From the NCBI GenBank assembly GCA_963734545.1, contig CAVTHO010000004.1:192001-256000 (forward strand): a DNA stretch of 64,000 bases. Direction: 5' to 3'. Positions 39,649 through 43,307 of this stretch are shown here, in pieces; the stretch's first letter is position 1; the number at the start of each line of letters is the position of its first letter. The notes beneath the pieces are model-generated. The model worked only from the letters and a program-made list of their open reading frames with translations. It was not told where the DNA came from and did not search any database. A program made the position numbers and the translations under genes. This DNA comes from an uncultured Spirochaetota bacterium (lineage in GTDB: Bacteria > Spirochaetota > Spirochaetia > SZUA-6 > Fen-1364).

Positions 39649-40291
39649 TCCCGCGCGATGCAATGGCGCAGCAACTCGTGTGCTTCCCGGAAGCTGCCGC
39701 AGGCCAGCCATGGGCCCAGGTGATCAAGAAACTCCTGGCGGGGCAGGGCGATGACCACGCGTGCGGTCATGAATGCCTGCGAGCCGCAATGGACCAGGAA
39801 CCCTCGGTCAACTACCCCCCGCTCAATACCGAGGCGCAGGGGCGCCCAATCCCGATTCCGAAGACCCTGGCCCTCCACGAACCGAAAGCCGACCGTCTCC
39901 CGTGGGGTGGATGCGACAAGGTCGATCTCTTCGCTTTGAAAGTCGTCGTGATGCGCTCTGTCAGGGAGGCTCGCAGCATGGCAAGGCTGCTGCCGCCAAG
40001 TGTCTCGATCAGCCGGCAATTCCGAAGCAGCACGTGAGGGGGCCGGCCTGCCAGGGACGGCAGCACACGGACCAGACCCGCAGTCTCGAGCGACGCAATG
40101 CGATGCAGGACCGTATGGTAGGAGATGTCGAGGCGTCGCCCGATTGCAGACGCATTCAGCGCCTGCCCATTGCAGGTGGCAATCTCCCGCAATATCTCCC
40201 GCGCAAGCGGCGTGCGCCATTCCAGCCAGTGCAGGCCCTGCGGATCCGCTGTCATCAACTGGTCGGATTTCCTCGTACGCATGCTCGCCAT
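39591..40291 (-). pseudogene. wHTH + degenerate PD-(D/E)xK (DUF4143-like) protein lacking the AAA ATPase; frameshift near 39940
   Basis: 'NGQALNASAIGRRLDISYHTV.HRIASLETAGLVRVLP', then in another frame 'EIDLV...VGFRF'. Confidence 0.55.
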
Positions 40292-40419
40292 TGGTGAAAA
40301 CGCGGAATTTAGAACTGGCACTTCTAAATTCCGTAAAATCGCAAGGCTTGCGGGTCGGTCATCGGAAAATCGCAGCCGGTACCGCGGCGGCCTGACCATT
40401 TTTCCGATAATGGGGTATA

Positions 40420-42345
40420 GTGCACGAATTGACCGAACCAAGCAGGGCAAGCTTCGACAGGGTCCTGGAACAAAAACCCACCCACGAATTGTGGTCGTCC
40501 CACAATGAAGAGTTCTGGTCCAAGGACCCCTACTATCATCTCCGCCTGGGAGAGAAAGCAGACACGAGCGGCCAGTCAATGCTCGCCCACGACATCTTCA
40601 AGGACGGCCTGCGATTGTTCCCCGGCCATCCGCGCCTGACCCAGCTCTACTGCCGTACCCTCATCAATTGCGGGTTCCTTCTCACCGCGCGGGACCTGCT
40701 CACCGACATGGTGAAACGCGGACACTTCGACGAAGAGACGCTGGGCATTCTCGGCCGGGTCTACAAGGAGATGTGGTTGATCGAGGGCAGCGGCGCTCCC
40801 GATCACCCGCATCTTGTGAAGTCCCGCGAGGTGTACCTGGGGGCGTTCAACCGCAGCAAGGGCGTCTGGACAGGCATCAACGCGGCAAGCCTCAGCCTGA
40901 TCATGGGAGACAGCGCACAGGCGGAACGGCTGGCGCGGAAGGTGATCCGGCTCTGCGCGGCGGCCTGGAGAAAGCCTCCCTACGGAGACTATTGGACCGT
41001 GGCCACGGTGGCGGAGGCGTTTCTCCTGCTGGGCCGACAGGAACAGGCGGCAAGGTACTACCGCATTGCGCGGACGCGAAGCGGGCAGGATTATTCGAAG
41101 CTGGCAAGCACGCGCCGCCAGCTCAACCTGCTCGCCCGTTACACGGCAATCGATCCGAAGGTCATGGAGACTCTCCGCATTCCACCCGTGGTGGCATTTT
41201 CAGGCCACATGCTCGACCAGCCGGGTCAAAGACGCCCGCGTTTTCCGGAGAAGGCCTCGGAGCCCGTGAGGCGGAGCATCGCGGAGATACTGGAGCGGTT
41301 CGACGTGCGGATAGGCTATGCCTCGGCGGCCTGCGGGGCGGATGTCCTGTTTCATGAATGCCTCCAGGACCGCGGTGGAGAGAGCAACGTGGTGCTCCCG
41401 TTCGCGCGCGAGGACTTCATGGAAACGAGCGTGCGCTTCGCGGGCCCCGCGTGGGTCAGGAGAGCGGAGGGCATCCTCGCGGGAAGCTCAGTGGTGGAGC
41501 AGGCCACCCGGGGCGGATACGGAGGAGAAGATCAGCTTTTCTCCTACGCCAATCGGCTCATCATGGGCAAGGCGATTCTCCGCAGCCGTTTCCTGGAGAC
41601 GGAACCGCTCCTTCTTGCCGTGTGGGACGGAGCTCACGGCGGAAAACCCGGAGGAACCGGGGAAAGCGTCGAGACATGGAGGGCAAGCGGCTTTCCCTAT
41701 GTCGTGATCAAGCCCGCAACGGCGTCAGTGGAGGAGCACGCGGGCAGCCGGCGCAGGATGAGCAGGCCGAGGGCTCGAAGTGAAAGCGCGGCACACGCCG
41801 GTCGGCAGACGGTTGCCATCCTCTTTGCCGACATTGTCGGGTACAGCCGGCTCCGGGAGGAGCAGATCCCCCACTACGTGCAGGGCTTCCTCGGCGGATT
41901 GGCCCGGATAGTTCAACGCGCCGGGCATGAGCCGCTCTACAAGAACTCCTGGGGGGATGCGATCTGCTTCATGTTCGCGGATCCCCTCGAGGCGGCGGCC
42001 TGCGCCCTGGCAATGCGCGACATGGTCCGGCACACCGACTGGGCCAGCCTCGAGCTGCCGAAGGACCTCAACATCCGCATAGGCCTGCACGCCGGCCCCG
42101 TGTACGGCTTCCACGAGCCGCTGCTGGAAAGGCGGAATTTCTTCGGCTCCCACGTCAATCAGGCCGCCCGCATCGAGCCGATCACCAGTCCGGGCAACGT
42201 CTACTCGAGCGAATCCTTCGCTGCCCTGCTGCTGGCGGACGGGAGGAACCGGTTCGACTGCCGCTACGTCGGGGTCATTGTTCTGCCGAAAGAATTCGGA
42301 AGCTATCCGATATATCATGTGAAGCGAATGACGGAAGTGGGATGA
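40420..42345 (+). CDS. Multidomain protein: TPR/MAP3K TRAF-binding-like + SLOG-like + class III nucleotide cyclase
   Basis: 'ETLGILGRVYKEMW', 'GINAASL', 'DYWTVATVAEA' (DUF4071-like); 'FSGHMLD', 'ASAACGAD', 'VVLPF', 'AVWDG..GGT' (SLOG-like); 'LFADIVGYS', 'WGDA', 'RIGLHAGP', 'GSHVNQAARIE'. Confidence 0.85.
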   Translation: MHELTEPSRASFDRVLEQKPTHELWSSHNEEFWSKDPYYHLRLGEKADTSGQSMLAHDIFKDGLRLFPGHPRLTQLYCRTLINCGFLLTARDLLTDMVKRGHFDEETLGILGRVYKEMWLIEGSGAPDHPHLVKSREVYLGAFNRSKGVWTGINAASLSLIMGDSAQAERLARKVIRLCAAAWRKPPYGDYWTVATVAEAFLLLGRQEQAARYYRIARTRSGQDYSKLASTRRQLNLLARYTAIDPKVMETLRIPPVVAFSGHMLDQPGQRRPRFPEKASEPVRRSIAEILERFDVRIGYASAACGADVLFHECLQDRGGESNVVLPFAREDFMETSVRFAGPAWVRRAEGILAGSSVVEQATRGGYGGEDQLFSYANRLIMGKAILRSRFLETEPLLLAVWDGAHGGKPGGTGESVETWRASGFPYVVIKPATASVEEHAGSRRRMSRPRARSESAAHAGRQTVAILFADIVGYSRLREEQIPHYVQGFLGGLARIVQRAGHEPLYKNSWGDAICFMFADPLEAAACALAMRDMVRHTDWASLELPKDLNIRIGLHAGPVYGFHEPLLERRNFFGSHVNQAARIEPITSPGNVYSSESFAALLLADGRNRFDCRYVGVIVLPKEFGSYPIYHVKRMTEVG

Positions 42346-43307
42346 GGGGTATGGCAGCAAAGAAGAAGAAAAAGAGGCCCGCATCGCGGAAAAAGACCGG
42401 CCGCAAGCGCCTGGCAAAGCGCGTCGCAAAGCGCGTCGTCAAGCGCGCGAAGAAGCGGACAACCCGCCGCGCCCCCAAGCGCGCGCCAAAGCGGAAGAAG
42501 AAGCGGCCTGTCCGGCGCAAGACCGGCTCGGCAAAGCGCAAGGTCGGCCGCAAGGTCCGGCGGAAAGTCGGCCGCAAGGCCAAACGAAAGACAGCCCGCA
42601 AGAAAACACGCAAACCGGCACGCAAGACGGCCCGCAAGCGGCCCAAGACCGCCGCGCGCAGGAAGAAGAAGCCTGCCCGGCGCAGGACTTCCGCCAGGTC
42701 GCGGCCCGCCCGAAAAAAGGCACGGGCCGCGAAGCGCAAGCCGGCGCGCAGAAAGACCGCTGTCCGGAAGAGCAGGAAGCCGGCGCGCCGGTTTCCCAAG
42801 GCGCCCGCGGCCGCGGCCCGCAAACGGACGCCGGGGTTCTCCCTGCGCAAGCTGGCTGCCCGGCTGAGCCCCGGCATCAAGCCTCCGATCGAGGCCTACA
42901 GCGGCAACAAGCCGTACATCTTTGCCAGCTATTCTCACAAGAACATCAAAGAGGTGTTCTGGTGCATCAAGAAGCTGGCGGAGAGCCGCTACAGGATCTG
43001 GTACGACGAAGGGATCGAGCCGGGCAATGAGTGGCCCGAAGAGGTGGGCCGGGCGCTCACGGGGTGCCAGCTCTTCCTGGTATTCATGAGCCCGGCGGCC
43101 ATGGATTCCCGGAACGTGCGTAACGAGATCAACTTCGCCTCCAGCGCGAACAAGAGCATGATGGTGGTCATGCTGCAGCCTGCCGGCCTGTCAGAGGGGA
43201 TGCAGCTTCAGATCGGGACTGTTCAGTTCGTCAGCAAGCACGAGATGACGGACGCCGAGTTCCTGGAGAAGATGAAGAAGGTGCTGGACCCCTCGCTCCG
43301 CGTCTGA
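42342..43307 (+). CDS. Histone H1/Hc2-like basic region fused to a TIR domain
   Basis: 85 of the first 150 residues are K/R (hand count) and there is no D/E before residue 184; TIR 'YIFASYSHKN', 'IWYDEGIEPG.EW', 'FLVFMS', 'SRNVRNEINFA'; start 42342 (ATGA overlap) or 42351. Confidence 0.88.
   Translation: MRGMAAKKKKKRPASRKKTGRKRLAKRVAKRVVKRAKKRTTRRAPKRAPKRKKKRPVRRKTGSAKRKVGRKVRRKVGRKAKRKTARKKTRKPARKTARKRPKTAARRKKKPARRRTSARSRPARKKARAAKRKPARRKTAVRKSRKPARRFPKAPAAAARKRTPGFSLRKLAARLSPGIKPPIEAYSGNKPYIFASYSHKNIKEVFWCIKKLAESRYRIWYDEGIEPGNEWPEEVGRALTGCQLFLVFMSPAAMDSRNVRNEINFASSANKSMMVVMLQPAGLSEGMQLQIGTVQFVSKHEMTDAEFLEKMKKVLDPSLRV

Follow-up and report, generated by a model that had tools for sequence, protein, structure and literature searches.

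A polybasic TIR protein encoded beside a TPR-S/SLOG/cyclase protein in Spirochaetota: a candidate signalling relay

Introduction

What would a bacterium do with a TIR domain that sits behind some 160 residues of dense positive charge? This question is raised by a gene at positions 42342..43307 (+) of the window, by which we mean the whole 64,000-nucleotide stretch analysed here (contig CAVTHO010000004.1, positions 192,001 to 256,000, assembly GCA_963734545.1) from an uncultured Spirochaetota bacterium. The initial annotation had described the product as a histone-H1-like polycation fused to a TIR domain and had read it as a self-sufficient sensor, an NAD+-consuming enzyme (NADase) scaffolded by nucleic acid. 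That reading missed the adjoining gene, which encodes TPR-S, SLOG and class III nucleotidyl cyclase domains. Since the two genes are linked, the likely logic shifts from an NADase effector to a signal generator in a relay. Here, we ask whether the fusion is real, what its tail conserves and how the TIR protein and its partner might work together.

Results

The polybasic tail and the TIR domain are a single protein

In its longest reading, the open reading frame (ORF) encodes 321 amino acids. Lys (42) and Arg (43) make up 56.7% of its residues 1-150, and its first acidic residue is at position 184, exactly as first described (about 57%, none before 184). The repeated basic units reported at the outset can also be seen in the DNA as four 12-nt tandem arrays, which correspond to 4-residue units. 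Translation more likely starts at the second ATG (42351; MAAKKK..., 318 aa) than at 42342, because an ATGGC(A/G) start lies 3-4 nt past the upstream stop in 14 of the 16 readable loci from relatives and the database copy of the protein has 318 residues. One metagenome contig carries a 1-nt deletion at 42346 that would shift the ATG at 42342 out of frame. In the 318-aa form, the repeat-rich tail spans residues 1 to ~161 (42351..42833, +), and Asp and Glu are absent from its ~160 residues; the net charge over residues 1-170 is +90. We infer that this tail is probably disordered. A linker (FPKAP ... FSLRKLAARL; 42792..42866, +) is conserved at genus level in the alignment, and the TIR domain (42879..43304, +) runs from a KPPIEAY edge to the C-terminus.

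The tail and the TIR domain are a true fusion, as had been proposed from the lack of start codons between them. Indeed, ATG, GTG and TTG are absent from 42781-42900 in every + strand frame. We took the locus from 19 TIR-positive relatives for frame comparison, and in 16 of them a single unbroken frame led from the conserved start through the tail into the TIR domain. The three exceptions comprised a stretch of N, a frame problem where the tail begins and a genome in which the cyclase gene was also fragmented. Tails of the 16 intact loci were 137-305 residues long with 38-54% Lys plus Arg, and acidic residues numbered zero in 14 and one in the other two. Support for the junction also came from contigs (not reads) of four other metagenome runs, none of which spans the whole gene. 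These cross 42780-42900 without a stop or a net indel: contigs covering 42699-43284 and 42452-42874 align to the gene with 0 gaps, and one low-depth contig has +1 and -1 changes, four bases apart, that cancel. The layout is common to homologues. Among the 120 best database homologues, a motif located where the TIR begins in 87, and the 33 that it could not parse were dropped. In all 87 the N-terminus is basic, 46-247 residues long and with 0-8 acidic residues.

Codon statistics of the tail were normal, with a GC content at third codon positions (GC3) of 0.82 and AAG used for 37 of 45 Lys codons, as in neighbouring genes. We also scanned the 5.1-Mb genome in six frames for 80-aa windows with at least 40% Lys plus Arg, at most one Asp or Glu and at least 12% Lys. 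Such windows occurred in only three frames, of which the tail frame was the strongest (48/80 Lys or Arg), and this composition is far beyond chance. Opposite the tail lie two minus-strand ORFs of 201 and 207 aa (42275..42880 and 42315..42938, -), for which no match was found in the loci of 20 relatives. They are by-products of GC-rich low-complexity DNA.

Tails of relatives were unalignable and were built from lineage-specific repeats. In the 42 loci of a wider scan that had both a tail and the partner gene (see below), tail length ranged from 109 to 336 aa with 0-4 acidic residues. The ratio Lys/(Lys + Arg) was ~0.3-0.5 where GC content was 57-69%, and 0.7-0.98 for most of those with 41-60% GC, with extremes of ~0.3 at 63-69% GC and 0.98 in one 41% GC locus. 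By these sequence comparisons, it is charge that is conserved in the tail, because sequence and length drift freely and the Lys:Arg balance tracks GC content. Conservation of charge alone fits an electrostatic ligand.

The term 'H1-like' was right for composition but not for homology. Like the H1-like polycations (chlamydial Hc1/Hc2, AlgP and the HupB tail), which bind DNA, the tail is rich in Lys, Arg, Ala and Pro, free of acidic residues, built from repeats and of fast-diverging low complexity. Homology to them was not detectable: at E ≤ 0.01 the window protein had no Pfam HC2 (PF07382) match, and a precomputed PF07382 call was present for 5 of the 120 homologues listed. A further difference is that the polycation is fused here to a putative enzyme, rather than being a free nucleoid protein.

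The TIR domain keeps a putative catalytic glutamate

Pfam TIR_2 (PF13676) matched residues 193-302 of the 321-aa form with an E-value of 1.6e-15 (58.1 bits; cut-off 28), in agreement with the earlier TIR assignment, and TIR identity across relatives was 57-94%. The Glu that had been singled out in SRNVRNEINFA (codon 43125..43127, +) is E259 of the 318-aa form, or E262 of the 321-aa form. Together with the surrounding motif SRNVRNEIN it is invariant in 16/16 aligned sequences, and the Glu itself in 18/18 when other phyla are included. A single-sequence PDB search with the TIR domain returned only Cat1 (E 0.079), and a profile built from the domain matched Cat1, TLR15/TLR2, the TIR protein 7uxr, MyD88 and SARM1. 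In the HMMER alignments, the Glu pairs with that of Cat1 (WDELEQA), TLR15/TLR2 (QYELYFA), 7uxr (EYELNG) and 9m0n (KKEITE), at the position that is catalytic in NADase TIRs. The conserved Glu thus points to a putative NAD+-consuming or signal-synthase activity.

Matches to defence models were weaker. Pfam ThsB_TIR scored 21.1 bits on the TIR protein, just below its cut-off of 21.2, and NCBIfam ThcB4 scored 15.3 against 220. No PADLOC Thoeris model matched the proteins, and PADLOC Aga_TIR matches to the TIR were weak (E 1.5e-5). At E ≤ 0.01, Pfam found TIR_2 and the sub-threshold ThsB_TIR on the TIR protein but no cyclic-mononucleotide (cNMP)-binding domain.

The adjoining gene encodes TPR-S, SLOG and cyclase domains

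The partner gene (40420..42345, +) encodes 641 residues, and its three parts emerge from the ORF list, Pfam and structure models. Pfam assigned TPR-S (56.5 bits), the related MAP3K_TRAF_bd (30.3 bits) and Guanylate_cyc (43.9 bits; cut-off 21.9). Residues ~6-238 (40435..41133, +) are predicted to form TPR-S/ASK1-like helical repeats: the AlphaFold2 model is all-helical, with a predicted local distance difference test score (pLDDT) mostly of 85-96, and its Foldseek matches were TPR proteins and the central regulatory region of ASK1 (5ulm).

The middle region of ~190 residues had no Pfam match, even at E ≤ 10. As fold searches with the full-length protein were dominated by TPR matches, this domain was folded alone, and a model built from 13 orthologues reached a pLDDT of 87. 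Its top Foldseek match was YpsA (2nx2; E 4.6e-7), with which it aligns at Z 17.4 and a root-mean-square deviation of 2.5 over 156 residues (VIA-align). Other SLOG-fold proteins followed (DprA, Z 12.0; ShosA, 11.1; LOG, 10.9), then the ADP-ribose-binding domain of TRPM2 (9.2) and the ThsA SLOG domain with 3'cADPR, an isomer of cyclic ADP-ribose (cADPR) (7uxs; 7.0). On the strength of this model, the middle domain (residues ~255-440; 41182..41739, +) is a member of the SLOG superfamily, of the YpsA type.

Residues 463-620 (41806..42279, +) form a predicted class III nucleotidyl cyclase domain, whose PDB sequence matches are soluble guanylyl cyclases and adenylyl cyclases. D471, D513, N580 and R584 are present and invariant in 13 orthologues. 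We take the two Asp residues to be the metal-binding pair, and N580/R584 to be the transition-state pair. N509 and N573 (41944-41946 and 42136-42138), which we assume to be the base-specifying positions, align with the Glu and Cys of soluble guanylyl cyclase and are likewise invariant in the 13 orthologues. Canonical pairs at these positions are K/D for ATP and E/C for GTP. The N/N pair is neither, so the cyclase substrate cannot be inferred, and the cyclic nucleotide made by the predicted enzyme may be unusual. A PADLOC PycC match to this domain was weak (E 3.2e-6, 24.5 bits).

A predicted complex of the TPR-S and SLOG region (1-446) with the linker and TIR domain (146-318) gave no answer (score 0.00), which is uninformative either way. 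On the opposite strand, a 255-aa ORF (39812-40579, -) shares 160 nt with the start of the cyclase gene, and only the two closest relatives have matches to it, which are weak (42-51%).

The two genes form a linked cassette

The TIR was found in 20 of 40 relatives searched. In 19 of these 20, a full-length orthologue of the partner lies directly upstream on the same strand, and in the twentieth both genes are present on separate short contigs. Five genomes of the same genus lack the TIR: four show only paralogous cyclase matches (~1e-8), and the fifth (G017) has a 37%-identical paralogue of the partner. By this co-occurrence, the TIR gene and the partner gene are a strictly linked cassette. The flanking genes are metabolic or transport genes and are common only to the two closest relatives, so the pair behaves as a cassette. 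At the gene junction (42343..42353, +), the TGA of the cyclase gene (42343-42345) is followed by 5 nt and then by the likely ATG at 42351, an arrangement that suggests translational coupling of both genes.

To judge inheritance, cassette identity was set against identity over an RpoB segment, which was missing from two informative genomes. The values were 99% vs 85% in the closest comparison (G002), 92-95% vs 63-71% in most congeners and 77-79% vs 49-51% in other families. Because cassette identity falls in the order given by RpoB, descent with losses fits better than frequent transfer. Judged by context, the pair resembles a defence island less than it does a signalling cassette passed on by vertical descent.

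Related TIR proteins carry alternative tethers

A wider scan, with one genome per species, gave 80 loci, some of which are probably the relatives' own genomes, so that the counts are not independent. A tail was called when at least 100 residues had at least 25% Lys plus Arg and at most 3% Asp plus Glu. By this definition, 42 loci had both tail and partner gene, three had a tail without a detected partner, eight had the partner and failed the tail definition, and 27 had neither. Two of the three partnerless loci end at a contig edge and the third is an Anaerolineae metagenome-assembled genome (MAG; L079). The eight with partner only include two truly tail-less Leptospirales, four loci with frame or start problems, one 200-residue basic N-terminus with 8 acidic residues and one N-terminus of 36 residues. 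A local hidden Markov model (HMM) for the SLOG domain gave matches at 49 of the 80 loci, every one in Spirochaetota, and found no SLOG within ~4 kb of TIR homologues outside this phylum.

What replaces the tail differs between lineages. The Leptospirales orthologue has no tail: its TIR comes first, followed by a charged linker, one hydrophobic transmembrane (TM)-like helix and a coiled-coil-like end. In other phyla, the same TIR clade lies N-terminal to LRR, TPR, FGE-sulfatase or GYF domains. The paralogous cassette of G017 (L028; G017:C2 2473-6362) encodes an 823-aa protein with RyR, TPR-S, SLOG and cyclase domains, followed 140 nt later by a different 115-aa TIR_2 ORF (E 5e-12) and then by a protein-kinase-like ORF. 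The link between a TIR and a TPR-S/SLOG/cyclase protein therefore recurs with three TIR architectures: a polycation tail in Spirochaetia, a TM helix with coiled coil in Leptospirales, and a kinase-like neighbour in the paralogous cassette. These alternative tethers on orthologous or paralogous TIRs amount to a natural comparative experiment. The kinase-like neighbour is reminiscent of eukaryotic ASK1, where a TPR of this type is paired with a kinase, and a C-terminal cyclase fragment with a TAG lies further downstream at the G017 locus.

The SLOG domain family comprises 4415 representatives at E ≤ 1e-3. Of the best 150, we sampled 71 for architecture: 53 carry a cyclase, 54 TPR-S and 43 both, while eight have an N-terminal RyR and none a fused TIR. 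RyR also appears elsewhere, in two ~575-aa proteins (L084 2171-3901 and L092 2173-3897) that carry it at the C-terminus and whose genes immediately precede TIR-LRR genes belonging to the TIR clade studied here; the local HMM detected no SLOG in them, so they are not established as the same kind of partner.

Within the loci examined, a +90 polycation on a TIR occurs only in this clade and in the one Anaerolineae MAG. The latter (L079 2643-6043) holds the only tail-TIR found outside Spirochaetota, a protein in which a tail rich in Lys, Ala and Pro is separated from the TIR by a helical stretch that is not basic. Its gene directly follows one of the isochorismatase family, which includes nicotinamidases, and HepT-like and nucleotidyltransferase ORFs lie downstream on the opposite strand. 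The literature searched, which excluded preprint supplements, contained no description of a polybasic-tailed TIR. It also gave none of TPR-S with TIR and cyclase, an association that may well be described already, so our claim of novelty concerns the tail more than the cassette.

A proposed relay from a polyanion to a cyclic nucleotide

How might the two proteins work together? Architecture, fusion, gene linkage and conservation of catalytic residues are established by the observations above. From these we infer polyanion binding, NADase or signal-synthase activity, the role of SLOG as receiver and the direction of a relay. Specifically, the tail would tether and concentrate the TIR protein on a polyanion of the cell, with nucleic acid (DNA of the nucleoid, or RNA) as the likeliest candidate. 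Tethering would set the local density of the TIR, and density would switch the enzyme on. The active TIR would then convert NAD+ to a small molecule derived from ADP-ribose, and the YpsA-like SLOG domain of the partner would bind this product and so modulate the cyclase at the C-terminus of the same protein. In this way, the state of the scaffold would become a cNMP signal for the many cNMP-binding proteins of the cell, with TPR-S as an additional input or docking surface. In this genome, 21 cNMP_binding matches lie above the Pfam cut-off. We give the relay as a whole a probability of roughly 40%.

Several observations favour this scheme. The tail can be seen as a localisation device because Leptospirales substitutes a TM anchor for it and relatives carry sensor or anchor modules in its place; it is most simply a tether that would set the place and density of the TIR. 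Obvious ligands for a +90 polycation would be DNA and RNA, and anionic membrane and polyphosphate are also possible. Precedents exist: a TIR bound to double-stranded DNA in plants and the SPARTA system for nucleic-acid scaffolding, and the PucTIR filament for activation of TIR enzymes by packing or oligomerisation. In both plant TIRs and SPARTA, TIR assembly and activity depend on a nucleic-acid scaffold. The contact is made by the TIR itself in plants and by an Argonaute in SPARTA; in the window protein, that role would fall to a separate polycationic tail. The recurring link between a TIR and a SLOG protein matches the logic of Thoeris, hence our reading of the cassette as a relay. In Thoeris, TIR-made 3'cADPR is bound by the ThsA SLOG domain (10.64898/2025.12.03.692087), and the YpsA-like SLOG clade is said to include cADPR-sensing members (PMC9503650).

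Other points weigh against the relay. The SLOG match to the cADPR-binding domain of ThsA reached only Z 7.0, and no established ligand was found in the literature consulted for YpsA, the best SLOG match. SLOG and related domains can themselves be signal-generating enzymes, so the direction of the relay could be reversed; indeed, in the BcTir/Tpr work, the cADPR isomer is reported to come from the TPR protein and not from the TIR. Instead of DNA, the ligand of the tail could be anionic membrane, polyphosphate or the ribosome, and the Leptospirales orthologue is predicted to be membrane-anchored. A tail-TIR occurs in L079 without a cyclase or SLOG within 4 kb. A cyclase would also be an unusual Thoeris-type output, and the cassette encodes no dedicated effector.

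If the relay is right, it would directly link NAD-derived and cNMP second messengers, and it would give bacterial TIRs a simple physical switch, namely density on a polyanion. The TIR-SLOG output of Thoeris kills or arrests the cell; the same pairing here appears to feed a cyclic-nucleotide cyclase.

The cassette compared with known systems and other readings

The closest likeness is to Thoeris. As in type I (ThsB TIR with ThsA SIR2-SLOG) and other types, a TIR gene with its Glu kept stands beside a SLOG-bearing gene. In contrast, the predicted output here is a class III cyclase, where Thoeris systems use SIR2, a TM domain, a protease or similar modules. TPR-S is present in the SLOG protein as well, the TIR is preceded by a polycation of ~160 aa, and inheritance of the cassette seems vertical within a single group of spirochaetes, apparently outside any defence island. 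Curated models agree with this distance, with ThsB_TIR just under its cut-off and the NCBIfam Thoeris model far under. Type VIII Thoeris (BcTir-BcTpr, a TIR with a nucleoside-hydrolase-TPR protein) is similar in being a two-gene operon, in which a TIR stands beside a protein that joins a Rossmannoid domain of the TIR/DrHyd/SLOG class to a TPR; this TPR has been predicted to act in TIR signalling. Here, the YpsA-like SLOG lies after the TPR and a cyclase is fused to it, and the descriptions of those systems mention no tail on the TIR. We place the cassette within TIR-SLOG signalling, as a variant of it, but outside both Thoeris and Pycsar.

BcTir/Tpr also bears on the first alternative to the relay, in which the TIR is a non-catalytic adaptor: it would dock the TPR-S/SLOG protein, the tail would bring the cyclase to the nucleoid or membrane, and a local cNMP signal would arise with no NAD+ chemistry. 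In that system, a TIR-TPR complex is reported whose TIR is not the NADase; TLR and MyD88 TIRs, which are adaptors, are among our PDB profile matches; and the Leptospirales orthologue, too, has the look of an anchor. However, SRNVRNEIN is invariant in the aligned set and its Glu even in distant phyla, as expected of an enzyme, and an adaptor leaves the SLOG ligand pocket without a role. Because of the invariant Glu motif, we consider this unlikely, although it fares best among the alternatives.

The pairing of a class III-type cyclase gene with a TIR gene is also the gene content of PycTIR and PucsarTIR systems, whose TIR is activated by oligomerisation into filaments (10.64898/2026.08.12.744502). 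A second alternative has the partner act as the sensor and make a cNMP, which would activate an NAD+-depleting TIR and cause abortive infection, while the tail localises or restrains the toxin. The weak PycC match on the cyclase domain agrees with this, and we reason that cyclase before TIR is the usual order of sensor before effector. However, Pycsar/Pucsar TIR effectors receive their signal through a cNMP-binding domain and are served by a stand-alone cyclase, whereas the window protein lacks such a domain, its TIR bears a polycation and its cyclase is joined to TPR-S and SLOG. This order of events gives the SLOG domain no explanation, and the metabolic flanks and the inheritance of the cassette along species relationships also oppose it, as does the N/N pair, which differs from K/D and E/C. 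For lack of a cNMP-binding domain in the TIR protein, this alternative is less likely than the relay and stands second among improbable ones.

The third alternative, and the one closest to the initial annotation, is a stand-alone, nucleic-acid-scaffolded NADase that would respond to DNA or RNA when naked or foreign and deplete NAD+ against phage, independently of its neighbour. A polycation joined to a Glu-bearing TIR fits such a protein, nucleic-acid-dependent TIR activation has the precedents cited above, and the tail-TIR of L079 occurs without a cyclase gene, beside its HepT/MNT-like pair and isochorismatase-family gene. Yet the partner is kept in 42 of the 45 loci with a tail (two of the other three end at a contig edge), a linkage that is near-perfect in relatives as well. 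A +90 charge would, we reason, bind the cell's own nucleoid and RNA constitutively, which makes discrimination of foreign from self hard to see, and no defence-island context is apparent at the locus, with PADLOC Aga_TIR matches only weak. Strict linkage and a charge poor at telling foreign from self make this reading doubtful, below the two before it.

That the tail is an annotation artefact, with a short TIR protein as the real product or two genes joined by assembly error, is highly improbable: GC-rich low-complexity DNA does open long ORFs in several frames, two of them on the minus strand, and some database homologues have only 176-240 aa, but the + frame is kept in 16/19 relatives despite unalignable sequence, the opposing ORFs are unmatched, 42781-42900 lacks a start codon, the tail has ordinary codon usage, and contigs from other samples cross its junction with 0 gaps.

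A second polybasic tail in the genome

A second polybasic tail was found outside the window, as a Lys-rich tract (MKKKPATVKKAA...) at contig C6:280165-281354 (L110/L111). This tract has normal codon statistics (GC3 0.77) and lies just before an ORF with cNMP-binding and GGDEF-like domains, in a different frame. Read in frame with that ORF, the DNA would instead encode a poly-Glu stretch written entirely in GAA codons, with a GC3 of 0.45. A frame change near 280355-280400, from assembly error or real, is likely from these codon patterns.

One further scheme extends the relay to this protein and gives the TIR a housekeeping, non-immune use. A TIR bound to the nucleoid or RNA would report the state of its scaffold, and the SLOG-gated cyclase would pass a cNMP to the polybasic-tailed cNMP-binding GGDEF protein, whose tail would have been independently acquired. 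Layers of ADP-ribose-derived, cNMP and cyclic di-GMP signals would then be chained on one polyanionic platform. We hold this extended scheme to be as doubtful as the stand-alone sensor. In the closest relative (L112), the cNMP-binding protein carries a Lys-rich tail of ~115 aa as an in-frame fusion, and in nine more distant congeners this protein has a short N-terminus and no Lys-rich tail.

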